A stretch of 32,028 nt of DNA from Jimgerdemannia flammicorona (taxonomy: Eukaryota). A model generated the notes under the pieces. That model saw only the letters and a list, made by a program, of their open reading frames with translations. It searched no databases and had not been told where the DNA came from. Shown here piece after piece: positions 402 through 32,028 of this stretch. The DNA is taken from NCBI GenBank assembly GCA_003990765.1, contig RBNJ01000366.1:1-32028 (forward strand). The letters are read 5' to 3'. The first letter of the stretch is position 1. Each line of letters opens with the position of its first letter. The position numbers were made by a program, and so were the translations under genes.

Positions 402-2437
402 CCTAAAAAGTAACCCTATTACAGAAGACTACAGTAATCTAAACTTGTATCCTACTAAGGTTACTACTTGGAAAACAGTCTATCTAGCAGAGAAAAGGAA
501 GAGACCTGTAGAAAGACCATCCAGGAATATCAGCAGAAGAATCATCTAAAAGAAAGATGAAGAATATAAAGAGAAATAAGTAAAAATATCTCCCCAGACT
601 CCTTCACCTTTTGTCTCCAAAACAAATGAGCTATCACTAGAAGATGAAGAAATAGAATAAAAAAAATGAGAACCTGCTACTTCAAAGCCCAAAAAGAAGT
701 ATACCCTGAAGACTATATCTAGAGACATCTATAATAAAGTCTGGTAGAAGATTCAAGAGGCCAAGATGGAAGTCCCTCTTCTGCAGTTCCTATAACTAAT
801 ACCAGCTGGAGTTCAAAACAAATTACTGAGGACCACCAGATCCAGCACTGGCCAAGTTCCCATCCCACAGTAAGAGCCAGCTTCCATTCCTATTCAGGCT
901 ATAGAAAGATATATCAGCACTTACCTATATAGAGATATTAGAGAACAAAAGGCAAAAATTCTCATAGACATAGGAGCAGCTATCTATATTATTGCCAAAC
1001 AGTTCCTGGATACTCTCCAATAGCCTATTGATGGACCATTCAACCTCAGCATCATAGTAGCAGATGGAGTCTGAACTCAACCTCTCAGAGAAGTATGAAA
1101 TATCACTATCTTCCTTGGACACATTCAGTTCTCTATCCTGAAAGCTATTGTTACTGAAGCTATCACTTATGATATAATTCTTAGTACTAACTGAATGAAG
1201 AAAATAAATGCAGTTGTTAATATTGGTCAACAAGTACTCAAGTTTGACTACTAAGACAAGAAGTATAGAGTTAAGATGACCAGCTATAAGCAATTAAAGA
1301 AGAAGAAGAAGATTACTATTCAGGAGAAATATACCAGCAATAAAGAATCTACCACAGAAGAGGAGGAAGAATCTGAAGACAGAAATGACCCCAGACTCAA
1401 TCCCCAAATTAACTTAGTAGATGATAGACCAGAAGACAATATATGGGTCAAGAACACTGTCTCTATTATTATTGGAGCCATTGCAGGAGAAATCAAAAGA
1501 TGCCCCACCTGCCTCAAGAGATACAAGTACTCTGAGCACTCCTCCAAGATTATTGGGAAAAAGAATTCACCTGGTACAGCCTGCTCTGAGTGTAGAAAAA
1601 AGAAGAAAAAATACAGACATACTCCAGAAATATCTGCAGCCAAAGCTGTAGAAGTGCAAGCAATTTGGGGACAAGAATTATCTGAGGAAGAAGAAGTTCC
1701 TGACTAAGAAGTTCCTGACCAAAAAGTTCCTGAACAAGAAGTACTCGAAGAGGAAGAAGTCTCTGAACTTATTCTCTAGGATGACTCTTACTAGACACCA
1801 CCTAAAGAAAATGACCCTTAGAATATAGAAGAAGAACTCAGTATAATCACCATTATCTCCAAAAAAGAAACTCACCAAGAAAAAGCTTTTCAGCTAGGAA
1901 GATGTTCATACCAAATAGTCTTCTACTCTCCCCAAGACTACTGCTATCAGTATCATCTACTAGACCAATAGAAGAGACAGAGACCCCAGAGACCAGAACT
2001 CCTAAATATAGTTGTACAGTCAACTACCTTCTAAGAAGTTACTACCAAATTGCAAAGTCAATTCAGAGGACAAGACCTCTTTACCTAGACAGAAGTATAT
2101 CTCTTATCTACTCTTTTACTAACTTATGACCAAGATGGATACTAATTTCTGAGACAATAAGAGATCAATAACTAGGAACATCATTTCCAAGCAATGAGAT
2201 ATTGTAACCATAGAAGATACCCAGACTGCCAAGACTGCAGGCATCAGAAGATCCATCTCAGCCATGATGTTGTAATTCACACTTTGAAGAGAGGAGATAA
2301 CTGAAGCTAGATCCAAAAAAGCCAGACCAAAAAGCCAGGAATAAGAACCTATTGAGTGGAGTAACTCTGACCCAAATGAAGATATCAGTTTAGAAATTGA
2401 TGCTGAAGATGCTTATGCATATTGGAATTATGACTAA
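402..2437 (+). pseudogene. Decayed Ty3/gypsy-like Gag-aspartic protease polyprotein with a long non-RT C-terminal extension; 5' part continues upstream
   Basis: Frame +1 from 961 reads LIDIGAAIYIIAKQFLDTLQ*PIDGPFNLSIIVADGV*TQPLREV*...YDIILSTN*MKK. This is a retropepsin (LVDTGA...VADG...PLG...YDVILGTDWM) after reverting transitions. A Gag-like linker precedes it (IQEAKMEVPLLQFL*LIP, ~750-810). The same frame continues through ORF 1276-1707 (CPTC...CSEC) and, with a late frameshift, ends YAYWNYD-TAA at 2437. Confidence 0.8.
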
Positions 2438-2477
2438 AGGATAGTTTGAGGGCAGACCATTCTTTAGTAGAGACTGA

Positions 2478-4024
2478 TGTAATGAGCAACAGAATTATAT
2501 TACTGAAATCATAAATTAGCTATATACTATATCTAGTACACTAAGCAACCAAGACTGCTTTACTGTACCAATGTATATATTTAGCCAGAGATACCAGAAA
2601 CAGTATGTTTACCTATACCCTCAAGATATACCATACTCTTAAGATACACTATACCCTCAAGGTACACTGTACTCTTAAGAAACACTTGCTATAGTTAGTA
2701 ATCTATAGTTAGTAATATAGTAACCTATAGCAACCACAACTGTATAAATTACCCCAGAGACAAGAGTGAATAAAACCTCAGTCCAAAATTAAATCTAAAG
2801 TGATAGTATTCCTTTTTTACTCCAGTCCACTTTCTGATATAAAAGATTGATATGCTTACCAGACTAAGTCTGAAGAATCTGCTACTTAAAGAATAAGCTA
2901 TACTATTGGTATATTTACCAGACTAAGCCTGAAGAATCTGCTGCTTAAGAAATAAGCTATGCTATTAGTATACTTATCAGACTAAGCCAGAAGAGAAGAG
3001 TCTAAATTAAATCCAAAGCAAAAGTCAAGTCTGCCTACTATACTTTGAGAGTAACTCTATAGCCACTGCTAGGAGATTGTAAGCAAAGCATTCCTTTCCA
3101 CTCTAGTCCACTTTCTGATATAAAGAAGAGTTGTTATATTTTTGGTTTACTTACTAGATAAGCCTGAAGTTTGTCACCAAGTTCAAGAAAGAACTTTACT
3201 GCTATTTCTAAGTTATTTATCACATTCTCAGAAAGCTACCTTGCTTAAGCCAGTTTCTAATATAACTCACAGTGATCTATCATACAAATGAAGCCAGTCT
3301 TTAACATAACTTTGCTAAGAGACTCTTTCCCAGTTAAAGTCACTGATTCAGGAAGAATCCACACCAACTGAATTATTTTTCAGTTGAAGCTACCATTTTC
3401 AAGAAGAAGTCCACTGATTCAGAATAATCTACATTATCCACTATTTTCAAGTTATCTATATTCTCAGAGAACTCTACTAATCTAGGAAGAATCTGCAATA
3501 TTCAAGTTATTTGAGCTATCTGAATTATTTATACCACCTAAGTAATATTCTCAGAAGTCTATTAATTTAGGAAGAATCTACAACATCTAAGTTATTTATT
3601 ATTCCCAGTGAGCCTAAGAAGAATTTGCTGCTAGTATAATTCTGATTTAGGAGAATCTATGCTAAATTGAGTTATCTATCAAATTATCAGAATATCTCAC
3701 ATAAGAAATCCATTGTGCTATAGAGATCATCATACTATATAAGAGATTATTACTCAGAAATCATATACTTTTAGAGATCACACTATATATGAATTTTTAC
3801 AATTCCCAGTTGACCTAAGAAGGAAATCTACTTATATACAAATCACCACTATATTTAGAGAATCATCTCAATAAGGAAATCACTTACAGATATCCAGCTT
3901 TGACCATTATACCACTAAATACCAAGAACACTTTATTGCTTTTAACAAAGTAACTGGGGGCTTAAGCCAAACTACACTAACTCTCAACCTTATAATTTGT
4001 CTCTATTGAGCCAGATATGTTATA
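2478..4024 (+). mobile_element. Probable 3' LTR of the Gag-protease element
   Basis: Follows the ORF stop and a purine-rich PPT-like tract (AGTAGAGACTGA, 2466-2477). Starts TGTAATG and ends TGTTATA, both derivable from TGTAACG...CGTTACA by transitions. Contains TATAAAT (~2743), AATAAA (~2768), 18-bp repeats (~2612-2686) and ~59-bp repeats (~2858-2990). The 39-bp array begins mid-unit at 4025. The 5' LTR is outside the window, so this is unconfirmed. Confidence 0.45.
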
Positions 4025-5738
4025 GTATAGTTATCAATTTCTGTTACTGAATTGACTCTTACTTATATTCTCACATTCCTTTAGACTTCCTTTAGTATTG
4101 CTAGAGTAAGTAGAGAGAGCTTTATTTTTTGAAGTAGTCTGGAGAAAAGATGTTAGCATAGTTATTGATTTTTATTACTAAAGAAGAGAGGTTGATATAG
4201 TTATTAATTTTTATCACTTGAGAAGAGAGATTGGTATAGTTATCAATTTTTGTTTTTGTTACTAGAGAAAGAAGGTTAATATAGTTATCAATTTTTATTA
4301 CTAAATTGACTCTTACTTATATTCTTATATTTCTTTAGACTTTCTCTAGTATTGTTAGAGTAAGTAGAGAGAGCTTCAGTTTTTGAAGTAGTCTAGAGAA
4401 AAGAGATTGATATAGTTATTGATTTTTGTTACTAAAAAAGAGAGGTTGGTATAGTTATTGATTTTTATCACTGAAGAAGAGAGTTTGGCATAGTTATTGA
4501 TTTTTGCTACTAGAAAAGAGAGGTTGATACAGTTATCAATTTTTGTCACTAGATTGACTCTTATTTATATTTTTATATTTCTTTAGACTTTCTCTAGTAT
4601 TGTTAGAGTAAGTAGAGAGAGCTTCAGTTTTGAAGTAGTCTGAAGAAGAGAGATTGATATAGTTATTGATTTTTATTACTAGAGAAGAGAGGTTAGTATA
4701 GTTATTAATTTTTATTACTGGAGAAGGAAGGTTGATATGATTATCAATTTTTGTCACTAGAGAAGGGAGGTTGTCATGGTTATTCTAGAGAAGAAAGGTT
4801 GACATAGTTATTGATTTTTATTACTGAAGAAAGGAGGTTGGTATAGTTATCAATTTTCATTACTAGATTGATTCTTACTTACATTCTTATATTTTTTTAG
4901 ACTTTCTCTAGTATTGCTAGAGTAAGTAGAAAGAGCTTTAGTTTTTGGAGTAGTCTAGAGAAGAGAGGTTGATATAGTTATTGATTTTTATCACTAGAGA
5001 AGAGAGATTATCATAGTTATTAATTTTTGTTACTAGAGAAGAAAGGTTGGTACAGTTATTAATTTTTGTCACTGAAGAAGAAAAATTAGCATAGTTATCA
5101 ATTTTTGTTACTAGAGAAGAGAGGTTGATATAGTTATTAATTTTTATTACTAAAGAAGGAAGATTAGTATAGTTATTAATTTTTATCACTAAGTTGACTC
5201 TTACTTATATTCTTATATTCCTTTAGACTTCCTCTAGTATTGCTAGAGTAAGTAGAGAGAGCTTTAGTTTTTGGAGTAGTCTAGAGAAGAGAGGTTGGCA
5301 CAGTTATCAATTTTTGTTACTGAAGAAGAGAGATTGGCATAATTATTAATTTCTGTCACTAAGAAGAAAGGTTGGCATGGTTATTGATTTTCATCACTGA
5401 ATTAACTCTTACTTATATTCTCATATTCCTTTAGACTTCTTTTAGTATTACTAGAGTAAGTAAAGAAAACTTTAGTTTTTAGAGTAGTCTGGAGAAGAAA
5501 GATTGATATGATTATTAATTTTCATTATTATTATTATTATTATTTTTTAATAGAAATTTTCATTACTGTTATCAATTTTTATTACTAGAGAAGAGAGATT
5601 AGTACAGTTATTGATTTTTGTTACTAAAGAAAGGAGATTGGTGTAGTTATCAATTTTTGTCATTAGATTGACTCTTACTTATATTTTTTTACATATACTT
5701 ATATTCTTTTAGCATCACTAGAGTAGATCTGATCTTAT
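4025..5738 (-). repeat. Left arm: modular tandem array of 39-bp units interspersed with a ~92-bp module
   Basis: The unit CTAGAGAAGAGAGGTTGATATAGTTATTGATTTTTATCA (39 bp) repeats many times. The module GATTGACTCTTACTTATATTC...GAGTAAGTAGAGAGAGCTT...GAAGTAGT recurs near 4050, 4305, 4550, 4865, 5190 and 5400. Confidence 0.9.
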
Positions 5739-5832
5739 TATACATATACTCTTTTAGACTTTTCTAATACTTTAATTTATTTGAAATATTATTATATTAA
5801 ATATAAAGTTATTTAAACTATAAATTATAATA

Positions 5833-5906
5833 TTATTTATTTATTTTTCTTTCTTTTTTCATACTTCTTTTCTTCAAATTTCTTTTTTCTATTGTTTCTC
5901 TTTTTT

Positions 5907-5978
<72 letters not shown>

Positions 5979-7701
5979 CTTCTTTTTTTCTTTCTTTTTC
6001 TTTTTGTTTTTTAAAAATTTCATATATTGCATTAGCTATTAATAAATAAGTATATATAAATTGTTTATATCTTATTGATTCTTTATTATTCAACTATAGT
6101 AATTTAGATAGTTATACTAGATATTTGAATATAGTTACTAATGATATTGTTCTAAAATACTTCAATCTTGATTTTCTTCTTTAAGTAATATTAATTCATT
6201 CTTTTAAAGAGTTTACTTTTTATTTTAATAGTTTTATCTCATTTTTTAATATTAAAAATTAAGTGAGTTGAGAATGAGATTAAGGTTAAGATTGAAATTG
6301 AAATTGAAATTGAAATTGAGGTTGAGGTTGAGATTGAGGTTGAGGTTGAGATTGAGATTGAGATTGAGATTAAGATTGAGGTTGAGGTTGAAATTGAGAT
6401 TGAGATTGAGATTGAGAATATTGAAGAAGTTGAGACTAAAAAGATTAAGACTAAAGAGATTGATATTGAGATTGAAGAGGTATAAAATACTGAGTTGATA
6501 GAGATAATACTAATAGATAGTATTAGAATTAACTGACCAAGCACTAGTATATTTATATGTTTTGATAATTCTTTCAGCTATATAGATCTTTAAGTAAGCT
6601 TTACTAAATAGTCTTGCAAAGATATATTTAGTAACTATAGCTCTATTGTTTGTATTATAATATGTATTGATTACAAGTACAATCAAATTCAGACTTCAAA
6701 GTTTTAAAAGAAAGCTTATAGGGCTATAATAAATATATTATATTTGAAGATAATACTAATAGCAAAATATTATTAGCTCTGCAAGCTTTAATAGTTAAAA
6801 GATTGATATGACTTTTATATCTATTAAGTATAAGTAAAATAGATTTTATTAATTCAGATCTTATTGGTAAAATTGATTGAATAAAATGCTGAATATACTG
6901 ATCAAAGAGATTTTTTTATATATATCTCTTTTCAGTAAATCCCATAACTATTCCAGATGATACTCTATCTAATAGATCTTAAATTACTCTTTTTCTTTAT
7001 AGATAATTAATAGTAATAATATAGCATCAGTAGCTAAAATTATTACATACATATATAGATAGAAATATATTCTGTTATATTTATTATTGCTAATTTAGAT
7101 ACTTAATGAGTACCTTTTTTAGATAAGATAGACTGAAGCTCTCTCTTCATATTGAATTCAATTTTATCTATATTTCATATCTAATTAGTAGTAAGAGAAT
7201 ATTTATTAATTAACTTTTAAAGTTTATCAAAATAATTATAGATAATAATAAGATTGCCTTTTTGAGCTCTTGCTATTATAAGTATTGAGACTTTCTAAAT
7301 GATATATTTGAATGATTATTAAGAAATCTCTCCCACTAAGCTTGTTTAGGCTCTTTTTTAGAAAAAAGATATTACTTATTTTTAATCATCTCTAAGACTA
7401 TATAATTGACTAAAGATTTTATTAAGCCAAATCTAAGTTGTTATATATTTAAATAATATCTAATAAGTTCATCTTTCTCTTCAATAGTTAAAATAGTTTT
7501 AAGATCTAAATAATCAGAGACTCTATCTTTTAAAGCTTGATATAAAGCTATTTTCTGAATTCCAAATCTTCTAGTAACTCTATAAATACTAGAAGAATCT
7601 GAAGAATTCTGATAATACTATACTGTTTTTTTAATAACTTTCTTTTGATCTAACAGAGCCTTATTTTGATCAGACAGAGTCTTATTTCAACTTAGTAACA
7701 T
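5833..7701 (-). pseudogene. Decayed pogo/Fot1-like (Tc1-mariner superfamily, DDE_1) transposase
   Basis: Manual - strand translation from ATG 7701 gives an HTH region (SIYRVTRRFGIQKIALYQAL), a CENP-B-type HTH (LTIEEKDELIRY...LRFGLIK...A*WERFLNNHSNISFRK), I*NIDKIEF (=IWNMDETGF, D at 7168-7166), LLILNRYKSH (=LLILDGHKSH), LSSNIIYLL*P (=LPPNTTHLLQP), TSAWSVNSNTI (=TGxWPxNP) and a K/E-rich tail (ORF 5833-6093). Several stops and frameshifts. Confidence 0.9.
6270..6480 (+). repeat. Hexamer microsatellite (GAGATT/GAGGTT/GAAATT)n inside the transposase C-terminal linker
   Basis: Directly visible. It produces the spurious RLRLRL and ISISIS ORFs. Confidence 0.9.
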
Positions 7702-7717
7702 TATCTTACTCTAGAAA

Positions 7718-8357
7718 TATAAGATCAGTCCTACTCTAGAAATACTAGAGAAAATATAAATATATAGAAATATAAGTAAGAGTCAACTCTAGGTAATACT
7801 TTACCAATCTTCTTTCTTTAGTGACAAAAATTGATAATTACACCAACCTTCTTTTTCCAGACTACTTCAAAAACTGAATCTCTCTCTACTTACTCTAACA
7901 ATGTTAGAGAAAGTCCAAAGAAATATGAGTATAAGAGAATACAAGTGAGAGTCAATTCAGTAATAAAAATTAATAATTATACTAACCTTCCTTTTCCAGA
8001 CTACTCCAAAAACTGAAGCTCTCTCTACTTACTCTGACCATACTAAAGGAAGTCTAAAGGAATATAAAAATATAAATAAGAGTCAATCTAGTGATAAAAA
8101 TTAATAACTATACTAATCTCTCTTCTCTAGTAATAAAAATTAATTATTATACCAATCTCTCTTCTCTAGTAACAAAAATTAATAACTATATCAACCTTTC
8201 TTCTCCAGTGACAAAAATTAATAATTATACTAATTTCTCTTCTTTAGTAATAAAAATTGATAACTATATCAACTTTCCTTCTCTAGTAATAAAAATTGAT
8301 AACTATACTAATCTTCCTTCTCTAGATTACTTCAAAAACTAAAGCTCTCTCTACTTA
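7718..8357 (+). repeat. Right arm (part 1): inverted copy of the 39-bp/92-bp modular array
   Basis: ATAAGATCAGTCCTACTCTAG...ATATAAGTAAGAGTCAA at 7718-7786 matches the reverse complement of ~5665-5738. The same KINNYTNLSSLV pseudo-ORFs appear on the opposite strand to the left arm. Confidence 0.9.
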
Positions 8358-10547
8358 TTTTTTTTATTTTATTTTATTTTTTTTCTATAGGCTATAGTCT
8401 CATTTATTAACTATCTATAACATGCTACATATCCTCAGTAGCCCCATTCCACCCCAATCTCAACCCACCTTCACACTTACTTAGTCTTGTATCTTTAGGG
8501 TATAAGTTATGACCTCACTGCCTAAGTAACTAGATCCTCTTATCCAGCTTACCCCACTCAGTAGGTATGAGTTGTGAGCTCTAACTATCTTAAGTACTTA
8601 GCATCTAGTGCACCTGACCTACCCCTATTAGTACCTTCTGTCTTGTCCATCTAGCCCATCTTATCTATCTTGCCTATCTTGTCTATCTGTATTATCTGTG
8701 TTACCTATATTATCATCTTGCCATCTTGCCTGTCTTGTCCATCTTATCTGTCTTACCTGTCTTGCCTATCTTGCTCACCCATATTGTCTGTATTACCCAT
8801 ATTGCCCATATTATCTGTGTTGCTTGTATTGTCTGTTTTGCTCATTTTGCCCATCTTACCCATATCATCTGTCTTGCCATCTACCCATCTTACTCATATT
8901 ACCCATCTTGCCATCTTGCCTGTCTTATCCATCTTGTCTATCTTGTCTACCCATCTTACCATCTTGCCTGTCTTATCCATCTTGCCTATCTTGTCCACCC
9001 ATGTTGCCTATGTTGCCCATATTACCTATATTGCCTATATTGTCCATATTGTCTATATTGTCTATATTGCCTATGTTACTTGTCTATATTGCCTATATTG
9101 CCTATTTTATCCATTTTGCTCATTTTGCCCATTTTGCCCATATTGCCTGTCTTGCTGTCTACCCATCTTACTCATATTACCCATCTTGCTGTCTTGCTGT
9201 CTTGCCCATCTTGCCTATCTTGCCCATCTTGCCTGTCTTGTCCATCTTGCCTGCCTTATCTGTCTTATCTGTCTTATCTATATTGCCTATCTTATTGTCT
9301 TACCATCTTACTCATCTTACCCATCTTATCTATCTTGCTTGTCTTGCCTATCTTGCTTACCTGTATTGTCTGTATTACCTATATTATCTGTATTGCTCAT
9401 ATTATCTGTCTTGCCATCTGTCCATCTTACCTATATCACCCATCTTGCTGTCTTACCTGTCTTGCCTATCTTGCCTATCTTGCCCACCCATGTTATCTGT
9501 ATTGCCTATGTTGTCTATGTTGCCTATATTGTCCATGTTATTTATATTGTCTATATTGTCTATATTACCTGTATTGCCTACTTGTATTATCTGTATTGCC
9601 TATGTTGTCCATTTTGTCTATTTTATCTATTTTGCCTATCTTACTTATATCATCTGTCTTACTATCTACCCATCTTGTCCATGTTACTCATCTTGCTATC
9701 TTGCTATCTTGCCCATCTTATCCATCTTGCCTGTCTTGCCTATCTTGTCTGTCTTATCCATCTTACCTATCTTGCCCATATTGCCCATCTTATTATCTTG
9801 CCATCTTGCTTGTCTTGCCCATCTTACCCATCTTACCTATCTTGTCCATCTTACTCACCCATGTTGTCCATGTTACCCATATTACCTATATTGCCCATAT
9901 TGCCCATATTGCTTATATTGCCTATATTGTCTATTTTGTCTATTTTGCCTATATTATCTATCTTGCCATCTATTTGTCTTGCTTATATTGCCCATCTTGC
10001 CATCTTGTCATCTTGCTCATCTTGCCCATCTTGTCTATCTTGCTTATCTTGCCTATCTTGCCTATCTGTATTATCTGTATTGCTTATGTTATCTATATTA
10101 TCTATATTGCCTATATTGTCCATATTACTTATATTGCTCATTTTGCCTATATTGTCTATTTTGTCCATCTTGCCCATATTGTCCATCTTATTGTCTGCCC
10201 ATCTTGTCTCTGTCATCTGTCTTGTCATCTTGTTCATCTTGCTCATCTTATCTATCTTACCTCTCTTGCTCCTCTTACCTATCTTGTCATCTTATCTGTC
10301 TTGCCATCTTATTATCTTACTATCTTACCATCTTGCTGTCTTACCATCTTGCTCAAAATTCTTGAAATCTTTATAACTTGCTGAAACTAGAAGCTATAGT
10401 CATACCAAAAAGACCAAGTGGGACTCCTATATCTAAGAAATGAGGTATACCTGTCAGTGCTCCTTGAAGTCTATACATACTTATAGCCTTCAAAACTTAA
10501 GATACTCACCCTTCTGGTGACTTAGATGTGTGGATCAATCTTGACTA
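8358..10547 (-). mobile_element. Poly(A)-tailed retroposed insertion (5'-truncated LINE/SINE-like or retrocopy) with a 10-bp TSD
   Basis: TCTCTACTTA is duplicated at 8348-8357 and 10548-10557, splitting one 92-bp module. A T-rich tract at 8358-8384 is a poly(A) tail on the - strand, and AATAAA lies on the - strand at 8408-8403. No RT motif was recognised. Confidence 0.7.
8635..10352 (+). repeat. ~1.7 kb degenerate 9-mer array (GCCCATCTT/GCCTGTCTT/GCCTATCTT/GCCTATATT) with roughly 0.5 kb higher-order periodicity
   Basis: Directly visible. The variants are the CA, TG and TA decay products of an ancestral GCCCGTCTT/GCCCGTGTT. Similar blocks recur about three times. Confidence 0.9.
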
Positions 10548-10690
10548 TCTCTACTTACTCTGACAATACTAGAGAAAGTTTAAAGGAATATGAGAATACA
10601 AGTAAGAGTCAATCCAGTGATAAAAATTAATAACTATACTAATCTCTCTTTTTTAGTGATAAAAATTAATAACTACATCAATCTCTCTTT
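10548..10690 (+). repeat. Right arm (part 2): continuation of the inverted modular array after the retroposed insert
   Basis: TCTCTACTTACTCTGACAATACTAGAGAAAG...GTAAGAGTCAATCCAGTGATAAAAATTAATAACTATAC resumes exactly where the module was cut at 8357. Confidence 0.85.
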
Positions 10691-11432
10691 TCAGCTTTCA
10701 TCTATTTTTAGCTATTCTTTATAAGTATGATAGTTGCAAGTATAATAATTAGTATAGATAATGACCTCACTAACTCAATATGGTTAGTTTGTTTCTTAAC
10801 TTAAAAAGACAGTTACTTGATAATTATAATGAATATCAAGTATTCTTCTATATATTTTACTTGACAATAATAGTAACAGAAGGTATATATATCAGTTTTA
10901 GTACTTAGTACTTTCTCTTAGTTTTGAAATATTTTATTCTTCTCAATTTACCTGTTATTATTGCTTCACTGCTCTATTACTCTTTTTTTTTAACTAACTG
11001 CTTTACTACTCCACCTCTTCTCTGTTTACTACTCTACTTTACTGCTTTACTATTTACCTTGAGTTAGGCTCAGATAGACAGATTTGATCATTAATAGTTA
11101 TTATTAGTATTATATTATTATAGCCCAACTTATTATATACTAAGACTCTCTAAAGACTATAAAAACAGAGGACTTCTCAAAGTCTTGAGTCTTGGCAAAG
11201 TGAATGATTGGTTTCTACTACTGTGGCTGCTCTTGAGGTCTAGAGTAAGTACTAAAAGAAAGAGAGACTGAGAGATTACTAAGAATATTGCTGAGATTGC
11301 TGAGAAGAGTTGTTGAGAACATTATTACTATTACTAATAGACCTCAAGATAGTATATAGTAAAATAGATAAATTAGAATCAGTATTACAAACTGAGATCT
11401 ACTTTAGAAAGAGACATATCTTTTTGAGTCTC

Positions 11433-11840
11433 AAAGATATAAAATAACATAAAAGATATAGAATAGTATAAAAGATATAGAATAGTATAAAATGTATAAA
11501 ATGTTATAAAATATATAGAATAGTATAAAAGACATAAAATAGTGTAAAAGATATGAAATAGCATAAAAGATACAAAATGATATATATAAAAGACATAGAA
11601 TAGAGAATAACATAAAAGATATAAAAGATAGGAAATGATATAGTATAAAAGGTAAAAAATAGTATAAAATATAAGAAATAGTATAAAAGATAAAAAATAG
11701 TATAAAATATAAAGAATAGTATAAAAGATGAGAAATAGTATAGAAAACAGAAAACAGTATGAAAGATAGAGAATAGTATAAAAGATAGAGAATAATATAA
11801 AAGATAAAAAATAATATAAAAGATAAAGAACAGTATAAAA
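11433..11840 (+). repeat. ~20-bp minisatellite (AAAGATATAGAATAGTATAA)n, about 20 copies
   Basis: Directly visible 20-bp periodicity. It explains the F/Y/I/L-rich - strand ORFs. Confidence 0.9.
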
Positions 11841-11848
11841 GGTGAGAT

Positions 11849-12236
11849 TAGTGCTCCCAATGAATTGAATCAAGGGTCCAATTCAATTCAATTCAATTTG
11901 AATCAAATCAAAGGTCCAATTCAATTTAAAGTTCGATTCAAACCTTAATTTTCAAAATGTAATAACTCAACGAAAACTCATCTAAATTTAACATATTTTA
12001 GCTTGTTAAATTCACTGTATTAATGTGATTCTAATAAGCTAAAGTACGTTAGATTTGGATGTGTTTACACTGAGTTATTGTATTTTGAAAATTAGAGTTC
12101 GAATCAGACTCTCAATTCGATTTGACTTTTGATTTGATTTGAATTGATTCGAATTGAAAAATCCCCAATTCGATTCGACTCGTTTAACCCTCAATTCGAT
12201 TTGATTTGAATTGATTTGACTTGTTTGAGAGCACTA
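11849..12236. mobile_element. hAT-type MITE (388 bp), foldback structure
   Basis: Perfect 8-bp TSD GGTGAGAT (11841-11848 and 12237-12244). TIRs TAGTGCTCCCAA / TTGAGAGCACTA match 11 of 12. The interior is a long imperfect palindrome centred near 12020, with subterminal ATTCA/ATTCG pentamer repeats. An 8-bp TSD with YAGTG ends is typical of hAT. Confidence 0.9.
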
Positions 12237-15200
12237 GGTGAGATAATATATATAATAAATACCTAAGCTACCTACTGCTGACTAATACTTATCTGATCTA
12301 TAGACTCTAATGAATCTAGAACTATATCTCATCCTTGAGTAGAGTCTTAGACATTATAGTATCAAGTAAAGAACCAGCTTAACTATAAGTTATTTATTCA
12401 AAAAAATAAACAATTTCTTTAAATTTCTGATTCTAAGATAAGTTATATGATAAGATAAGACTTGAGATCTTTCTATGAATATAAATATAGTAGTATTTTA
12501 ATAAATTCCATCTGAATAATTTCCATAAGATTTCTGAATAAAACTGAGTATAAACAGTATAATCTCTAAAATAAGTTAGATTTTATAAGTTTATTATATT
12601 ACTATTATATTATTATCATATTTAAAGCTTGCTGTTTTTCTTCATATTTTATTGTTATCTTACTGCTTTTTAATTTTTTTCTTTCATTTATCAGTAGACC
12701 TTATTACTATCTTACTACTCTTTTTTTTACTTATCAGTAGTCTCTATTACTGTCTTACTGCTTTTTATCACTACTTATATCTTTCTTTCATCTGTCAGCG
12801 GACCCCATCAATACTCTACTACTTATTACTGCCTATTATCTTATCCTTAGTAAGTAATCTCTATCCTTACTCTATATATTATTTAATTAGAAATTCTAAT
12901 AATATTATATTTCTCTAATATTTCTTAGTATCAAAGTTAGGACCAGATTATACCTTATATAATAATTGCTATAGAAGTCACCAATAATGTCCAAGTTTAT
13001 AAGAGTATTGCAAAGTAATGCACCCTGATATCCAGGACATATCATTGAAGAAAAAAATATGATTTGATATTGAGAAAAGCAAGATTAGATATAAAAAAAA
13101 AAATTAAGCAGTAAGTAAAGTAGTATCAAATTATTATAATTTCACAAAATGATACTATATATTTTATTATTAATAATTAATAATGAGCCAAATACAGATA
13201 AAAAAGAATGGTTATTCTTAATGAAGAGAGTGAACTGATTGCTCATTTTGATTGAGTTCCTTTAGCAGAGAGACTACAGTATCATGTTAAAGAATTCAGT
13301 GGTAGAATAGAGAGAGATGAAGAGACTAATTAGCTTGATTTCAGTGAAGTTGATCAGCTTGATTTCAGTGAAGAGTGATGCATCTTTATATCTTATATAT
13401 AACAAACATTTGATCCTTTCAGTAGATTTATTTTCTCTTAATACTTTTTTAGTTAATAATCTCCTGATTTCTTCCTAACTCAATATATATATATAATATA
13501 TATAATCCTTTACATCTATATGTAACATCTGTATTATTAATAAAAGAACTGCTTCTAATATAAGAGAGATAAACTCTGGTATAGACTCTGACTAGTATAG
13601 ATTGACTAGTATGCATAGCTAGTAGAAATATTTATAGATATATTTGCTTGTATTTATATATATATAATTTATACTTATATAAATATTACAAAGTATAGAC
13701 TACAGTGTTTCTCTTAAACTATAACAGGCATATTCACCTATATTAAGATTAAGTACATATGCTTATCTTATAGATATATATATAGCATAGAGTGAGATAT
13801 TTTATACCAAATGTTTTTGCAGGCAAATTTGCCTGCACTATAGATTAAGAGATAGTAATTTTATAAATAAATAAAAAAAAACTTTTCTTATTCAATTAAT
13901 TACATTTATATTAAGTTTAAAAAATTATAATAATTATTAAGTTAAAATTATAAAGTAAGTTAATTTAAGATAATTCTTCTTTTTTTTTTTTTACAAATTA
14001 GATTTTAATATTTTATTTATATTATATAGTTAATATTAAAATTAAGTTAAATATTGAATATTCATTTTAAATAAAAGATTCAAAAATTTTACTCTATTTC
14101 CCAACTTAGATCTAATTATAAAATAATAAAGCTAAAGTTATAATATTTTATTCTTTGAATATCTTAGAAAATATCTATTTTTGAAAGCTCACAAAATAAT
14201 CAAGCACTGTTTGAGTGATAAAATGTTGTCTCACCTCTTTTGAATCCTAGGTATATACTGACATTAAGGGGATCGCGGCATCATGTGCAGAGCAATTTAT
14301 TTTTTGATATCTGGAAATTTGCATCATTCTGGCCGAACAAGAGGGCCGAAATTCCCGCCAAGCGGGTTGTCTTCCGATCCCATTGGATGGCCTAACCGTT
14401 GAGTTCAAAATAACCCTCCTATACCCGCTCGCTCGGCATTGTCCAATGTCCATTCACCCACCCTGTGAGCTTACTTAGGGCAAATGGCAAGGATTGGGGA
14501 TGCCCTAATGGGAAATCCAAAAGTAAGGGACATGGACATAAGGTTGCACCCGGCATCCGGGTACGACCGAGGGAATTGGCTAGCGTAAGTCGGTCGATCT
14601 GGACGGTTGTGCGTAGGGTGATCGACGGGTGCTCGTGTTTGTATGTGTAGATCTCGCGTGGCTTGATCGGATATCGTTGCTGTCCGTGTGGCGGCCGAAC
14701 CGCCAGAATGGGATGCGTTTTCACGGTGGATGGGAGAACTTGAACAACGGGCCTGAGAGTTGAGCTGAGTTCGATGTGGTTGTCAAGGGTTTCTTTGAAT
14801 AAGATATCTTTGTTTCCGTGACCTTGAATGCTTCAATGAAAGGAATCATCCATTGTTCTTAGTGTCTAGATGACATCATGAGGTCAATAGCTATGACAAC
14901 TGCGTGACTTAACGGATCACACACAGTACATAGTACCAAGGAGAGCAAAAACGAACGAGAAAGAAAATCAAAATCCTCATCCGCCAGGTCGCACGTGCAC
15001 GAACCCACGCCATCAGGTACGATAACACGGCGAAAAAAAAAAAAAAAAAAAAAAAAAAAAACGCCACCAGTACGAAGCCATCCGAAAGGACCATGCAGTT
15101 AATAATTACGTTGCTGGCGGGCCCAATGGGAAAGAAGAGACGAATATGTTTCTGTACGTCAAATGTGATTTCGTGATTGTGTTGTATGCGCCTGCATGTG

Positions 15201-16586
15201 AGGGAAGAGCGGATCAGAGAGACGAGGCCAAGCGATACGGGGTTTCAGATCCACTTCAATAGCTGGGGGATGGCACATGGTTGGGCGCAAATCGACAAAT
15301 GCGTTCACGGTCAGTGCGGACGTTTCAAACAAATTGTTTGATAGATCGTTGTTGTGGGATCGAGGGACCCGCGCGCGCGAAATGAAGTACCGGCACATCC
15401 CCGGGTCGCATAGGCGGTGCCGACGACGCGGTATGCACACCGAGAACAAAAGCAAACTGGGCGTGTCTTTCAGCCCAGCCGCGTTATCCAGGGCGACCTA
15501 CCGCGTCGATCCGAGGCGGCGAACCGTGATTTCATGTGATACCTCGCTCCCGACATTAGGGGGTCGAGGCGTTACGCGCCAAAAGTTGGGGTTGTCGATG
15601 GTTCGTAGAACGTATGGCGCACTACGCCCATGCCGTTTATCGTGAACGTGATCCGCCCGTTTTGGTGGATGGCCCACGTAGCGCAGTTTGAATGGTATGG
15701 AGACATGTGTCCCACCTCCCCCCCCCCCAAAAAAAAAAAAAAAAAATGCGGGGTGGCCTGAGAGACGACCAAGACCGGAAAATCAAATCCACATGTCCCA
15801 TCTGTCGTCAGCGATTTAGAATGGCATGTGCGCGAGGGACAAGACCTCGGGGTGCGACACACAATCGCAATCAAATCGATATAGTTCTCGGTTCGAGCTG
15901 CGCTCGGTAGACGGTTGCCAAATCGGTGAGAGGGCGACCGAGGCCCTTGTGGGCCTTATCGATGGTGGGGAGGATTGGTTTGCCGAGAACAGGGCGGGAG
16001 GGACGTGGAGACTCGGGTAGAATCATATGAGAGCGGTGCACGGGGCTGAAAATGTTGGTTTGACATTTGTAGGTGAGATCTGTCATTTTTTTTTTTTTCT
16101 ATCGTCGTTTTAGGTGGGATGGTGCTGCATCTTGTACGTAATCATGGGCACATGTAGGTATAGCATCTGCAGCAACAGCACGGGGGGGCAATCGGCGGTA
16201 GGGGATGATGTGTGGAATGGCACGGTGCCAGGGTTACGATGACAGAAGGGTAAGATATCAGCACCCCTAATCGCCCCAGATGTGGTTGGACAGGCCGGAA
16301 AAGGCGGGCAGGCCAAAATTGTTCGGTGATTTTCACATGTGAACCAGTTCAACGTGGGCGCGTGGGCGGCTCAGTCAGTAGCACGCGGAAGAAAATATTA
16401 ACGCTTTTTATTTATTATCAACCACTTGTTCCGGTCTGTCCTCGTCATCTGCTCAAATATCCATCCATTCACTCCCGCTTCCTCCCAGACTCAGAAACTT
16501 CCCTTCACCGGCCTTCACAAACACAGAACAAACAACTACTCCCCCCGTGTGGTGCTATCCATTATAAATTACTACAATATCAATTA

Positions 16587-18179
16587 ATGGCTTCAACTCT
16601 AATCAACCTCGTTGTCAACCATACCGACAAATTGCCCCTCAGCGGCTGGATCCCGCTCCCACCAACGACAAAGTCATGGCTGAACGATCTGAAAACTGAT
16701 GCCGACCTACGGAGACGCAATTCGCTCGGCAGCGACGCCAGCAGCGAGTCCGCGGACGACGATGAGGAGGTCACCACCCACCGCCTCAGCTCAAACACTC
16801 CCATCACCACTAATACCACCACCCCACTCCGCTATGGCGCCCCCCCGCCGCCCTACGAGGCCCAGGACGCCATATATCAGCCAGAGAGGAGGATGCCTGC
16901 CCGGTTCTACCAGCACCCATCCTCCAGCACCGATTCCGTCTCCACTGTCTCCACTGCCGTCTCGAATTATGATTTTCAAGAGATCCCCAACGCTTCTCTA
17001 GCCACCTCCAGGAGACCAACATCCATCTCTTCCGGCGCCACCCCCTCTCCTTCTTCCTCCACTTCCTCTAACTCGAAATCCTCTTCTCGTCTCTCCTACT
17101 TCCGGTGGACGTCCACTCCGGCGTCTCCCACCGCCCCGGCTGTGCCTGTTGCCGAACCCGTCATGATCGAGAGCCCGCCCCGTCGCGCGGGCAAATCCCG
17201 CGCCAGGACCGACTCTACCACTTCACTCACCACTACCTCCTCCGTCCAGACCACCTTCAGCCACCGCAGCGTCGAGCAGGCTGTCGCCCTCACCTCCGTC
17301 GCCGCCGAGGAGGACAAGGCTGGCAACCATCAGGTCGCCTTGGATCTTTACCTGACCGGGTTGGAGAAAATGCTAAACGCGTTGCCTGGTATGATTTCCT
17401 TCCACCATCCACCATGGTCGCAATAATAGATGCGGTTGTATCACTACGTGCACACATCTGCATCCCTCCTAACACTCGAACCAATCCACCCTCCCCTTCC
17501 CACAGTTGACGCCGATGAGAACGTCAGGCACGCCCTTCAGTCCAAGCTCGCCCAGTACGTGGACCGCACCGGCCTGGATCTCAACGAAGGCAGCCGCCAG
17601 AACCGGGACGACGGCCTCTTCTCTACGTTCGACACTAAGGTCGGCGGGATCTCGGAGGCTGTCATCAACGCAGCCGTCCTGAGCGCCATTGCCCTGAAGC
17701 AGAGTCCCATCCCAGGTACGTGCGATTTGTTGTGGACGGCCCCAAATCAATGATCGATCGGGCCCTCGATCAGCGTGGAACACGGAACTGTGACCGCGTC
17801 CTGTGACTACGCGCTCACACATACAAATACCACCTACATAGACGCCATCAGTGCGACGCTCAGCTACACCTTCCACACGCTGCAGCGTGTGGATGCCGCC
17901 TACAATATCCGTACTAAGGCCTGGGAACTGACCGCCATGGGGTTGACGCGCGCGATGGAGCTGGACGCTGAGTACAACCTGCACGGCCGCGTCAGCGAGG
18001 CCATCTACACCGGCTGCGCCGCCTTCATCAAGGCCGGAGTCGCGTACACCGACGCACCGGGATACCAGGAGGTGCTGGCCGGCCGCGTCAATGGCGAGGA
18101 GAAGGCCAGGATCATGAACGGGAAGAGTAGAGCCGCCAATCTGAGGCAGGAGGCCACCAGGAGGGCTAGCGTGCTGTAA
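16587..18179 (+). CDS. MIT-domain-containing protein, ~449 aa; exons 16587-17388, 17506-17715, 17842-18179
   Basis: Splicing at GTATGA..CAG and GTACGT..TAG keeps the frame. SVEQAVALTSVAAEEDKAGNHQVALDLYLTGLEKMLNALPVDADENVRHALQSKLAQYVDR fits the MIT three-helix pattern. The N-terminus is S/T/P-rich with a PPPY motif, and the C-terminal domain is helical. Confidence 0.85.
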
Positions 18180-19181
18180 GAAGAGGTGTACATCGGTGCG
18201 AGGGGAGAAGTGGTGAAGGGGAGGGGACTTACGAAGCGAGGCGATGTTGGGGCAAGGCGAGTTCACGAGCGGTCGTACCTATCTCGTTCGTTCTTTCGTT
18301 CGTTCTTTCGTCCTTCCCTTTCGTCCCTCTGTTACATATATCAGTTCGTTACATACTATTCTGAACAATTGTGGTGCGATGTAGGGCCGAGTGGTTGTTG
18401 AACTTTATATTTTTCGCAGTGTTGCTAGTACCACGCGCACATGCAGGAGGGCGTGGGGCGTCGGACTCTCACATTCCGTCGCGCGCGCGGTCGATCGATT
18501 GACCTATCGGGCAGATAAGTCTCTGCTTCGGACTTGCCGTTATCTACAAGTGTTGGGTTTTGTTTGCGCCCGTGCCGCATGTAAAGATAGACTGCACGCG
18601 GTTGCCTACATAATCCCTGTATCCATTATAGCATATCATGTATGTACAGAGAGAGGTGTTAGATCTATAGTAGAAGGGTGGTTTCCGTTCACGAAAAAAG
18701 TTTTTGATTGATTGATCAGTCAAGTCTCATACACATGTAATCGCCTTTGTTAGCGGCTCTACCTCCTTTTTCTCTCTTGTAATATAACATCATTTTGATC
18801 GAACAACTCGGATACAGCGCGTGTGCATGTCGAAAGAATTTTACGAGACGGGCAGCGTTCGGACAAATTTCCTGCTGGTGTGACCTCCGTTAAAACATCA
18901 TAATCCGCACCGGAATTTGTATGTGTATATACTTTCGTAAAGACTGCGGGAACATTGATGCCGTAATCGCTTGGCTCAAACTTGACTTGGTCACCGGAAT
19001 CCCTGGCAGCTAATACCCCTGGATGAGGTATAATAGTCGATTTGTCATATTCACGCTGGCAGATGACCGTTCCACAGAAGGCTTGTGCAATATTAAGCCA
19101 CAGAGTAGAGGAATTGGAACATAAACACCCGCAACGCAGAGACTCTAACAACTACGTCGTCACCTAAGACACTTGATTATA

Positions 19182-20922
19182 ATGAAATACAACCACACCA
19201 CAACACCTGCGCTCAAGGAACCCATATCCTTCATCAACGAGGACCCCGCCGCGCATGTACGCCCTCTCCCGCCTCTCTTCGACCCCGACGATCCCTCTGT
19301 GCGGATCAAGCGCAAACCAGGACGCAAGCCGAACCCTGTGGCGCCTATGCTTCGCAAGGCAGCCAACCGTGTCGCGCAGCGAGCGTTCCGCGAGCGCAAG
19401 GAGCACCACATAAAGGAGCTCGAGGAGCAAGTGAAGGCGCTGCGCGATCGCGCGGGTAAGGAGAGCGATGAGTTGCGCGCCACAGTCGAGGCCTATCGCG
19501 TCGAGAATGGGTACTTGAGGAATCTTGTTGTGTTGATGCAGTCAGTGTTGATACAGCATGGGATACCGGCGCCAGAGTTTGGAGATATGGATGTAGAGGT
19601 TGACAAGTCGACAAGGGCGGTCGCACCAAACGGGGCAGGAGAGGGGGAGGTGCCAATGCAGGTGGGAGGGATGGAGACACTGACGAGTGAGCATGGTTTT
19701 CCGCTTGAGAGATCGCCGGCGAGGACGCTGGATGGCTCGGAGCAAGAACTGCAGTTCCATTTCGAGGACTCGTCGGCGCAACAGGTCCCGGGATCGATAT
19801 CGGTCCCGGTCGGTCTGGAGTTCCAGCCTGACACTATGATAGCGGAGGCAGCCGTGCCCGTCCAGGCGCAATACTTCTCCAGGTCGTCAACAGACACAAT
19901 GTACATCAAACATTCGGACCCGTCGACGTCCCCGCTGCTCCCATGGGGCGCCGTCACGAGCACGCCGCTCAACACGTCGCAACCATTGAACCCTGACTTT
20001 GGGACGATCCTGCAGCCGATTACACCGGGGGCGCAGCTCATAGATAAGCTTTTCGCTCCCGAGGGCATTTCCACGGCGTCGCTGGACCACATAATGGAAC
20101 CCCTATACGCCGCTGACACATCCTACGTCATCTCGTCGGACCCCATTCACGACTCGCCCTCACCCGCCAGCCTCCCCACCTCTCCCGAATCCACCACGTC
20201 GACCTACTCGTCCTACTCGTCTTACCAACTTCTGACCCCATCCGCCTCCGCGACCTCGACGCTCCCCACGACAATCACCATCAATGCTGACACGCCGATC
20301 GTGCGTCCGCCTCCCGAGTTGACGACGCGCGCGGCCATCCAGTTAATCGAGCTTCAACTCCGCGCCCAGTCGGTATCCAAGACCTCCAATCTGCCTTACT
20401 CAATCCACCCGACCGCACTACAGCATGCGGTTCCGCACGACCCGCGGATTGACTTGTTACCGAGCATGCACATCCGCGACCGCATGATTGTCTTCCGCGA
20501 ATCGTTCGATCTCGAAGCCTGCATCCACATGCTCATGACGAAGGCTAAGTTCCACGGAGGGAACCCAGCCGACCCGGAGAACTGGGAACTGCCCGAGGAG
20601 TTCTTTACCGAGTTTTGGTTTTGCTGCGTGCATTCGGATGTTGTGCGAACAAATAAGTGGAGGAGGGCGAGGGGGGCGCCCGATGTGAGGTGGAAGACGC
20701 CGCCTGTGGAGGAGCTGAAGAGATTTGGGGCATATGGAGAGGCAAGAAAAGACCCTGCGATCGGTGAGTTGTATGGTTGGTATCGGTTCGATTTGAGTGG
20801 GGTGGTGCAAATTTGGGTTTCGGGCATGTTCTTTTACTTGATTGGTAAATATACATTATTCGATTATTCGATTTACAGATCGTATGCTACAAGAATCGAT
20901 GAGTGCGCTCTCCTTGTCATGA
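19182..20922 (+). CDS. bZIP (AP-1/Yap-like basic region) transcription factor with a C-terminal DUF3425-like domain, ~541 aa; exons 19182-20763, 20879-20922
   Basis: KRKPGRKP...RKAANRVAQRAFRERKEHHIKELEEQVKAL is a bZIP. PTALQHAVPHDPRIDLLP...RDRMI...NPADPENWELPEEFF..FWF...TNKWRRARG matches the fungal DUF3425 pattern. A terminal intron GTGAGT(20764)..TACAG(20878) is predicted; unspliced, the ORF runs to 21086. Confidence 0.85.
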
Positions 20923-21673
20923 CCGTGCACGGCGGCTCGTTCATGTCCTGTCCACCATATTATCTATGGAGATCTGGTCATGATGCATGTCGATCTCTGC
21001 TGGATGGAGTTATGACTCGAAGGGTGGGCGATGCTCTTGGAGCGTCGAACTTGCGCTTAGATAGATCAGTTGGAAGTTTGCGATGAAGCTCGCCTTAGTT
21101 GTAATTGGGTTTCTTGGCCACGTGATGCGTACTATTTATTTTGAACTATTGTTCCTCCTTTTCTATTTTCACGCTTGATTCGTTTGCCATTATTTTTCAT
21201 TTTATTTTTACGGTGCAATTATGTCCGGAATAGAAATGATCAGCTTTAGTCTTCACGACAATTAAATTTCAAAGGCAATTGACGGTTAGATTGGTCGCCA
21301 CTACCGAGGAATGATGCGCAATACGTCGTCGCAGGGGTGCCGTTGCTTATATTGATGCCATTAGGGTATTAAATACCGCCATTTCACACACGATCACCTG
21401 CACTTTTCCAAGGGACAAAAGAGTCTGATGTGCTGCGGCACCGAAGTTTCGGAATATTGTTGCAAGGAGGAGGCGATAACATGCGAGATGGCGTATCGAT
21501 GCTTTTGTTTTATTTTATTTTATTTACCATTATGGAGGGATGGTTGGATGGTGGGGTGGTTCGTTCTGGCACAAGCAATAAATAGCCACCAGGAAGGGTT
21601 GGCTTTCGGAATGATCGAAGAGACTAGCGGTCAACTACGCCACCTACGCCAGTAACTGCGGCCCTGGATGGAT

Positions 21674-21681
21674 TGACGTCA
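21674..21681. promoter_or_regulatory. CRE/ATF palindrome TGACGTCA ~175 bp upstream of the eRF1 start codon
   Basis: Exact 8-mer match in the proximal promoter region; function not shown. Confidence 0.3.
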
Positions 21682-21853
21682 CCGTCTCCAAGCGAATAAG
21701 AGACGCGGTAAAAAATTTGTTAGAACCAGAGTCTGCCCTTCTTCAACCGATTAAACCAGCCAAGAGGAGCCGCTGAGCTTTGAAACGTCGCCTTTGCCGA
21801 ATCGCAAATAGCTTCCACATAGTCGACTACATAAGCTTAACAAAAAGGCAAAG

Positions 21854-23847: not shown

Positions 23848-24076
23848 CAAACTCTGAACGTCAGCAATGAGGGGACGGCAAAGGGCGGGGAGGGGGCGGG
23901 GCCGGGGCGTGCGGAGTCGGGAGGCGCACGGTGTGATCAGTATATGGAGATGAGCCTCGGTCGTGGAGATGGTAAGAAGGGTGTCTACGAGAAAAATGGG
24001 AAGAGAAATGATAAGGTTGCCGTTGCCCCGGCGGCCTGATGGTGAATGTTAGCCGAGAAGTTCGTGCACACGTTAG

Positions 24077-24186
24077 GTGAGTGGTCGCCTCTTTTCATTG
24101 ATTGCTATTTCTTGGTAATGGATTTTCAGGATCGGTTAAAACGCCCTCCTTCTGACCAATATCGATCTGATTGTTCAATTCTTCAG
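24077..24186 (+). promoter_or_regulatory. Predicted intron in the eRF1 3'UTR
   Basis: Donor AG|GTGAGT at 24077, branch-like CTGAC (~24152) and CTGAT (~24167), acceptor TTCTTCAG at 24186. The 110-nt length is like the coding introns of this gene. There is an alternative acceptor TTTTCAG at 24129 and an alternative donor GTAAGA at 23972. Confidence 0.55.
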
Positions 24187-24230
24187 ACCGCATTTGCGAA
24201 TCAGACAACGTATCCAATATAAAAAGCTCC

Positions 24231-24268
<38 letters not shown>

Positions 24269-24748
24269 GTGATTGCGCACACGCGTCGCAAGACCTGCAC
24301 AATTGCACACGCGTCGTCCAATTTCATAGTTTCTTTCGAATCTCATCAGATGTAACATATCTTCTATCTTTGGTCTTTCTCAACCGTGTGGTGGTATCGT
24401 GCAAGAGCGGGTTCCGTATCGCTCCTGTCTGCATTTCCCCTACTTTTTTCGTTCGTTTGCTGTTTTGTATACGAATAGACCAAAGACATGTTTTACGTGA
24501 CGGAGCGTTGTTGGAGCCTGCTCGATTTGGTTGGAATACGAAGTGATTTTTATTGAAATTTATATATATATGCGTTCTTGGAAGGTTGCTCAAATCGCGT
24601 TTTGGTCAAGGTTCAGGAGTCCCGAAGTCACGGAGCTGGTCAAAAAGTGTGGGAAAAGAACAGAGTGGCTTGAAACGTGACCGTCGATCGTAATCTTCAA
24701 AATTCATGCCCCGTAAACACATCGTCTACTCTGGACTCGCTTTCCAAA

Positions 24749-29382: not shown

Positions 29383-29480
29383 AAAAAGGACCAAAAAGTT
29401 CATAATTAATGAACAAAAAGGGACCAAGAGGTTCATAATTAATGACAAAAAAGGAACCAAGAGGTTCATAATTAATGAAC
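29383..29480 (+). repeat. Three tandem ~31-bp repeats (AAAAGGGACCAAGAGGTTCATAATTAATGAAC)
   Basis: Directly visible. Confidence 0.85.
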
Positions 29481-31920: not shown

Positions 31921-32028
31921 GTGAGTTTGAATGGCGACGTTAAGCTCGGTTATAGTCGGCATCGTTGCTATACGTCATGTATGACATGACGTTCGTCGTT
32001 TTTCGGAGGTGGCGGGGAACTTTGGGGG

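Follow-up and report, generated by a model that had tools for sequence, protein, structure and literature searches.

We analysed a 32,028-bp stretch of DNA from Jimgerdemannia flammicorona, a root-associated, early-diverging fungus of the Endogonales (Mucoromycotina), and refer to this whole stretch (contig RBNJ01000366.1, positions 1 to 32,028) as the window. Between positions 402 and 14250 it contains a 13.9-kb block of transposon remains and satellite repeats from which CpG has almost vanished. The changes that produced this state are polarised from C:G to T:A and fall equally on both strands. The best reading of this pattern may be a methyltransferase-linked cytosine mutagenesis that is confined to repeats and resembles repeat-induced point mutation (RIP) in its outcome, an interpretation to which we would give about an even chance. 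The sequence by itself cannot separate such active mutagenesis from the passive deamination of densely methylated DNA. An initial annotation of this DNA had suggested either a RIP-like defence or dense methylation in all contexts. This pair of explanations is supported here, in that the host is not an ascomycete and non-CpG cytosines are lost far above the background rate. The pattern that it had noted is real and greatly exceeds chance.

Extent of the block and loss of CpG

The block stands apart in composition, with a GC content of 19-40% compared to 41-60% outside it. Between 396 and 14273, CpG occurs at positions 1746 and 12799, the same two that the initial annotation had picked out, at ten positions (11934-12197) within an embedded 388-bp miniature inverted-repeat transposable element (MITE), and nowhere else. 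When the MITE is set aside, the remaining 13,465 bp of the block hold 2 CpG where 278 are expected from the local base composition, an observed/expected ratio (O/E) of 0.007. The left flank (1-401, GC 41%) has 16 CpG for 16.1 expected, the right flank (14274-32028, 17.8 kb) has 1181 for 1104, in agreement with the abundance of CpG previously noted beyond about 14270, and the MITE has 10 for 8.4, which places O/E in the flanks and the MITE at 1.0-1.2. CpG is the sole missing dinucleotide, the O/E of GpC in the block being 1.01.

The switch between the two states is abrupt, taking ~25 bp at the left edge and ~50 bp at the right edge. At the left edge, the last CpG of the flank lies at 395 and homology to a retroelement starts at 421-424. 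A tblastn search with a protein relative of this element (P0121) as the query found no similarity between the left flank (1-401) and the missing 5' part of the element; the loss of CpG thus sets in where the element fragment starts. The block carries no intact gene, and Pfam scans within it covered two frames, 403-2100 on the plus strand and 6401-7801 on the minus strand. The following features were recognised.

402-14250, no strand assigned: the CpG-free, AT-rich, hypermutated repeat block as a whole
421-2100, plus strand: 5'-truncated, degenerate gag-protease frame of a retroelement, identified from a weak Pfam match, protein relatives P0121-P0127 and DNA homology to a metagenome contig (L001)
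925-1266, plus strand: remnant of a retropepsin domain, 71% identical to P0122
1691-1742, plus strand: 15-bp coding tandem repeat
2613-2994: short tandem repeats
3926-4022, plus strand: match to L001 173-270, the sequence that precedes gag there (98 columns, 84% identical)
4023-5700, plus strand: satellite array of 39-bp units in 254-326-bp higher-order repeats
5879-6012, plus strand: poly(T) tract of 134 nt
6264-6417, plus strand: hexamer array TGAGAT, with units that differ solely by G/A
7700-8360, minus strand: inverted copies of the 39-bp/higher-order satellite
8641-10352, plus strand: 9-bp satellite with the inferred unit TCTTGCCCG, in which the former CpG sites have all become TG, CA or TA
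10545-10692, minus strand: another piece of the higher-order satellite, also inverted
11433-11841, plus strand: 19-bp satellite
11849-12236, no strand assigned: 388-bp MITE with terminal inverted repeats TAGTGCTC/GAGCACTA and normal CpG
12245-14250, no strand assigned: AT-rich DNA in which no element was recognised and the one CpG is that at 12799

The MITE, which we take to be hAT-like because 8-bp target-site duplications are a mark of that family, has perfect terminal inverted repeats of 8 bp. Its insertion site borders the 19-bp satellite, and identical 8-bp copies of the target site (GGTGAGAT) lie at 11841-11848 and 12237-12244. Comparison of its arms, of 277 bp each, shows 78% identity, with 42 transitions and 19 transversions. 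Either the MITE was spared by the mutagenesis or it was inserted afterwards. The two target-site copies, in which four of the 8 positions are G, are identical, an indication that insertion followed the main episode. A late insertion would fit an episodic process, and equally a MITE that simply arrived recently.

Direction and context of the base changes

Alignment of the block with itself gave 44 alignments of at least 80% identity that are not mutually independent. Their 891 transitions outnumber their 66 transversions by a factor of 13.5, compared to 2.2 in the MITE arms. The best single alignments have ratios of 129:8, 52:4 and 44:3, and in the best of all, transversions occupy 8 of 1134 columns (~0.7%). 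Below 80% identity, where many alignments run out of register in short-period arrays, the counts were 3565:1196.

The tandem repeats reveal the direction of change. In six families, 608 of 1512 site-copies at G/C positions read A/T (40%), compared to 14 of 1490 site-copies at A/T positions that read G/C (0.9%). Transversions were found at 21 of 3002 site-copies, a count that is biased downwards because the copies were gathered by purine/pyrimidine identity; this choice does not distort the contrast between G/C and A/T sites. A column was called G/C if at least ~8% of the copies and at least two of them carried G/C, a rule under which a shared A>G change would be mislabelled. The polarity holds independently of this rule, since two outgroup tests, one on protein and one on DNA, agree with it. 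The 39-bp unit, recoded into purines and pyrimidines and searched for with up to three mismatches in that code, has 24 copies in the window, of which 18 are without a transversion and 6 have one.

Outgroups are provided by relatives of the retroelement. Its decayed frame (403-2100) has 19 stops in 566 codons and is otherwise open; translated with X at the stops, it gave a weak Pfam match to gag-asp_proteas (E=1.1e-3, below the curated cut-off). An exhaustive search found 150 protein relatives at E<=0.001, 15 of them at E<=1e-10, and a word-based search found one. The closest relative, P0122, has an aspartyl-protease domain of the retroviral type, as has P0123, in which zf-CCHC and dUTPase domains are also present. 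These protease, zinc-knuckle and dUTPase domains identify the frame in the window as the gag-protease part of a retroelement. The initial annotation had described reading frames that stay largely intact, conserved motifs degraded by transitions, and a CAA turned into TAA within the 15-bp repeat, and the comparison bears it out: along with the low number of stops, the protease alignment with P0122 runs without gaps, LIDIGA and ILSTNX stand for the LIDTGA and ILGTNW of P0122, and at 1691-1742 TAA is found where the neighbouring unit has CAA.

In the protein test, each window codon was classed by whether it can be reached from the residue of the relative by C>T/G>A changes only or by the reverse changes only. 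Among 114 residues aligned with P0122, the 33 mismatches comprise 24 that are forward only, none that is reverse only and 9 that are neither. When the closest of seven relatives was taken at each codon, the non-redundant counts were 74 forward, 13 reverse, 107 neither and 261 identical. The DNA test relied on L001, a contig of 3278 bp that encodes a 98%-identical copy of P0122 and was the sole confirmed locus among 568 matches to a pattern built from a two-sequence alignment. This intact relative has an open frame of ~986 codons, a GC content of 46% (range 45-49%) and a CpG O/E of 0.30. Its positions 1843-3061 align to 424-1612 of the window at 70% identity (1219 columns, 6 gap openings), and the aligned parts have 17 CpG and 47.5% GC in L001 versus no CpG and 37.2% GC in the window. 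The differences amount to 164 from C/G to T/A, 49 in the reverse direction and 123 transversions, a noisier outcome than in the satellites because L001 is a diverged relative and not the parent copy. On the coding strand of the element, 80 C>T changes are matched by 84 G>A changes, so that both strands were hit equally. The piece at 3926-4022 differs from L001 by 9 changes from C/G to T/A, 1 in reverse and 5 transversions.

The fate of a cytosine depends on the base that follows it. Cytosines were retained at 78 of 296 CpG sites (0.26), 161 of 320 CpA sites (0.50), 249 of 411 CpC sites (0.61) and 398 of 461 CpT sites (0.86). The preceding base has little effect, as retention outside CpG varies between 0.61 and 0.73 across the 5' bases; within CpG it is 0.17 for ACG, 0.39 for CCG, 0.15 for GCG and 0.31 for TCG. 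Losses of 50% at CpA, 39% at CpC and 14% at CpT, compared to 0.9% at A/T sites, confirm the earlier suggestion that non-CpG contexts are hit as well, and at rates above background. They rule out a strictly CpG-limited process.

At 124 former CpG dyads in three satellites, CG is no longer found at all, and the sites now read CA (46), TG (25) or TA (53). The last of these outcomes implies a further hit, on a cytosine whose CpG had already been lost. Across the 84 in-register units of the 9-bp satellite, the former CpG reads CA in 37, TA in 32, TG in 15 and CG in none. Since the same site has different outcomes in different units, the hits must have come after amplification of the arrays and independently in each unit. 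No clustering by strand was seen within units (strand-difference permutation p 0.09-0.95 in five families), and the mutation load per unit is over-dispersed in one family alone, HORb (p=0.024).

The dinucleotide indices commonly used for RIP were also computed. TpA/ApT is raised from 0.49 in L001 to 1.0-1.1 here (1.11 in the block), and (CpA+TpG)/(ApC+GpT) is 1.10 in the block and 1.32 in its element part; the block value of this substrate index lies above the usual RIP cut-off. Judged by the hallmarks of known processes, the block has the polarised C:G>T:A excess and the TpA/ApT value of classical RIP; it lacks the preference of RIP for CpA, its own order being CpG > CpA > CpC > CpT. Nor are the changes confined to TpCpG, as in the hypermutation of Pucciniomycotina, or to CpG, as passive decay would have it, given the losses at CpA, CpC and CpT and the TA at 53 of 124 dyads. 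The strand asymmetry and 5'-neighbour specificity of AID/APOBEC enzymes are likewise absent.

Active mutagenesis, passive decay and other origins

The longest exon of an eRF1 gene in the window is 99% identical to the 471-residue eRF1 of J. flammicorona, for which the database model is labelled a variant. The next matches, at 90-94%, are from Calcarisporiella, chytrids, Umbelopsis, Rhizophagus and other early-diverging fungi. With this eRF1 on record as Jimgerdemannia flammicorona, the organism does not belong to the Dikarya, as had been supposed from the sequence, and ordinary ascomycete RIP does not apply. The genome of this species is reported to be ~240 Mb in size and to consist of more than 77% repeats (PMC7928374, PMC10386755). 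A search for sequencing runs returned 11, two from the organism itself and nine root metatranscriptomes with small shares, from which no habitat can be read.

We propose that the block is heterochromatin-like repeat DNA, composed of a truncated retroelement and several satellite arrays, and that C->T mutagenesis acted on it as double-stranded DNA, after the repeats had been amplified and within the limits of the block. The agent could be a DNMT1- or DIM-2-like member of the C5-cytosine methyltransferase superfamily that targets silenced repeats and might accelerate the deamination of their cytosines. The result would be a RIP-like genome defence that operates without the ascomycete RID. A methyltransferase-linked process is suggested by the combination of the 3'-base rule, the involvement of both duplex strands, the confinement to silenced repeats and the ranking of CpG before CpA. 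In RIP, RID and DIM-2 are thought to promote deamination themselves. Potential parallels are RIP by way of DIM-2 and heterochromatin, and the mitotic mutator of Zymoseptoria, which depends on Dim2 and causes C>T changes in methylated transposons during mitosis, with a mutation rate raised more than 10x and over 95% of the mutations in methylated regions (PMC8016269). DNMT1 and a DIM-2 homologue have been reported from the mucoromycete Phycomyces (PMC7862722, PMC13297926). A more specific version of this proposal, that a RIP-type mutagenic defence exists outside the Dikarya and employs a non-RID methyltransferase of the Endogonales (DIM-2- or DNMT1-like) with the order CpG > CpA > CpC > CpT, is somewhat less secure, and we rate its likelihood as a little short of even.

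Passive decay is the strongest competitor, a serious possibility that we nevertheless regard as the less probable one. Under this explanation, the block would have been subject for a long time to dense CG methylation, upheld by maintenance of the DNMT1/DNMT5 type, together with non-CG methylation, and spontaneous deamination of 5-methylcytosine (5mC) would have been poorly repaired. Such decay accounts for CpG as the most depleted context. It also accounts for a load that is uniform among units and free of strand clustering, as expected from independent single events, and it agrees with the low CpG content of the intact relative L001 (O/E 0.30). Transposons of the related Rhizophagus irregularis are heavily CG-methylated (PMC8647823), and methylation in Phycomyces is mostly CG (PMC7862722). 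Other aspects of the block are harder to accommodate. The non-CpG losses of 14-50% and the 53 TA among 124 dyads would require heavy non-CG methylation, which is low in the mucoromycete methylome cited above (CHG 0.3%, CHH 0.5%; PMC7862722), and the MITE inside the block keeps all of its CpG.

Three considerations lead us to favour active mutagenesis over passive decay. The first is speed. Relative to a background that is small (0.9% at A/T sites, ~0.7% for transversions), the loss rates derived from cytosine retention and the A/T-site transition rate would be at least ~250x for CpG and ~70x for CpA, well above the ~10-20 fold excess at CpG that passive 5mC deamination produces in mammals. The second is the all-or-none nature of the effect, with an O/E of 0.007 next to values of 1.0-1.2 and an untouched MITE in between; the CpG depletion of vertebrates under passive deamination corresponds to an O/E of ~0.2. 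The third is the preservation of the element frame apart from point stops, which leaves little time for other forms of decay.

Several observations weigh against active mutagenesis. CpG is the most affected context, as deamination under CG methylation predicts, and the low CpG O/E already present in L001 would fit a gradual, methylation-driven decay of the whole family. The lack of strand-wise clustering means that the block does not show the processive, single-stranded signature of fresh RIP. In the accessible literature, Mucoromycotina and Gigaspora are stated to have yielded no RIP signatures (Dallaire et al. 2021, PMC8647823, citing Venice et al. 2020), the enrichment of RIP-like signatures in repeats is described as unique to ascomycetes (Badet and Croll 2025, PMC12543289), and RID is given as restricted to Pezizomycotina or Ascomycota (PMC5751038, PMC13297926). 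In addition, our evidence comes from one window and hence one locus.

The remaining explanations are improbable. Old junk DNA could have decayed neutrally, driven by a mutation pressure that is AT-biased in general and has no special effect on cytosine. This explanation would be compatible with an AT-rich block that is devoid of intact genes, and we still consider it unlikely: transversions and transitions at A/T sites are at ~1%, as opposed to 40% of G/C sites changed, the transition:transversion ratio of 13.5 is well above the 2.2 of the MITE arms, the element frame has been kept with 19 stops in 566 codons, and the edges are abrupt. Even less credible is the idea that the changes did not arise where the block now stands, which would make it a misassembly, DNA of foreign origin or a piece transferred from an already-mutated compartment. 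The very sharp edges could be taken in its favour. They have to be set against the MITE inside the block, whose 8-bp target-site duplication is intact, the intact relative of the retroelement family in an environmental contig and the independent mutations of units in a regular array, although earlier mutation elsewhere in the same genome is still compatible with these findings. Least probable of all is an AID/APOBEC-type deaminase or RNA editor that acted on retroelement intermediates before integration, as might be imagined for a block that is partly retroelement, since C>T and G>A are equal on the coding strand (80 and 84), satellites without an RNA or cDNA stage were hit alike, and the 3' neighbour is decisive, with little effect of the 5' neighbour by which AID/APOBEC enzymes are guided.

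Several known systems resemble the state of the block. One is RIP of Neurospora crassa and other Pezizomycotina, with which the block shares polarised C:G>T:A changes on both strands, restriction to repeated DNA beside unaffected flanks, specificity for the 3' neighbour, stops in transposon frames, an AT-rich product and raised TpA/ApT. Unlike in N. crassa, where CpA is affected first (PMC8016269), CpG comes first here, with a substrate index of 1.10. RIP in Pezizomycotina also depends on RID, and in the accessible parts of the relevant papers RID is not reported from Mucoromycota, to which our fungus belongs (PMC5751038, PMC13297926). RIP is furthermore premeiotic and acts on duplicated sequence above a threshold of length and identity; the likeness observed here lies in the sequence pattern. 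Pucciniomycotina present a second case of CpG-centred C>T excess in the repeats of non-ascomycetes, and the question of active mutation versus methylation is common to both (Horns et al. 2012, PMC3318451). Their hypermutation is strictly confined to TpCpG; in our block ACG, CCG, GCG and TCG have all been lost, and CpA and CpC are heavily hit. The Dim2 mutator of Zymoseptoria tritici, which depends on the methyltransferase, changes C to T at CpA in methylated transposons and has no need of a sexual cycle (PMC8016269), might serve as a model for the proposed mechanism, with the difference that CpG has been eliminated here. Finally, CpG decay by 5mC deamination, as in vertebrates and Rhizophagus irregularis, likewise turns CpG into TpG/CpA in silenced repeats and leaves genes CpG-normal (PMC8647823); it differs in the O/E of 0.007 found here, in the speed relative to background and in the non-CpG loss of 14-50%.

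To the extent of the literature examined, RIP-like C>T hypermutation has not been described in this lineage or with this order of contexts. The pattern was not reported in publications on Jimgerdemannia or Endogonales that deal with RIP, AT-rich regions, CpG, methylation or transposons, a search that did not extend to the species' genome paper or to Venice et al. 2020, either of which may contain relevant analyses. The accessible text and supplements of the CDCA7-HELLS survey do not list Jimgerdemannia. If a RIP-type defence does operate in the Endogonales, mutagenic defence either predates the Dikarya or arose a second time, and surveys of early-diverging fungi by CpA-based RIP indices would have missed it. 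Should the repeats of J. flammicorona prove generally devoid of CpG and saturated with C>T changes, this would bear on how the genome tolerates its repeat load and on how methyltransferase-linked mutagenesis arose in fungal evolution. Transposon ages based on divergence would then be inflated, including Kimura distances with a correction for CpG only, and RIP screens centred on CpA would miss a process that begins with CpG. J. flammicorona has a sexual stage, with zygospore-bearing sporocarps, and could therefore become a system in which active and passive routes are told apart.

Further features of the block and neighbouring genes

The retroelement and its family have two additional properties. 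The 98-bp piece from upstream of gag lies on the downstream side of the gag-protease fragment, over 2 kb away, and directly precedes the 39-bp satellite array. Its location downstream of the fragment indicates that the element has been rearranged, and the 39-bp satellite may have grown out of a terminal or untranslated region of the element. In P0123 (1179 residues), the dUTPase domain follows the protease (E=1.3e-32). The element family would therefore bring its own uracil-avoidance enzyme, which is worth noting beside a signature of cytosine deamination.

At 8618-10384, all three frames of the plus strand are open for ~575-590 codons. The openness results from the 9-bp satellite, whose plus strand is rich in pyrimidines and nearly devoid of A, and we rejected the region as a gene because the frames are a by-product of this composition. 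On the minus strand, frame 6401-7801 surrounds the motif ATAGATAAAATTGAA (I-D-K-I-E), which the initial annotation had listed among conserved motifs altered by transitions. A single copy of the motif does occur, at 7157-7171 (minus strand). Its reading as a transposase motif gained no support from a scan of the frame with X at the stops, which matched no Pfam family at E<=1. The frame has ~20% GC and numerous stops and may possibly be a decayed transposase.

Genes with normal CpG lie in the right flank. The eRF1 gene (21854-23850) has at least five short introns, its exons having been read from three-frame translations. Its neighbours are located at 16254-17426, 19182-20800 and 25180-26974. 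One of their products matches the MIT domain weakly, short of the curated cut-off, another is a bZIP protein with DUF3425, and the third is a GTPase of the CobW/COG0523 type.

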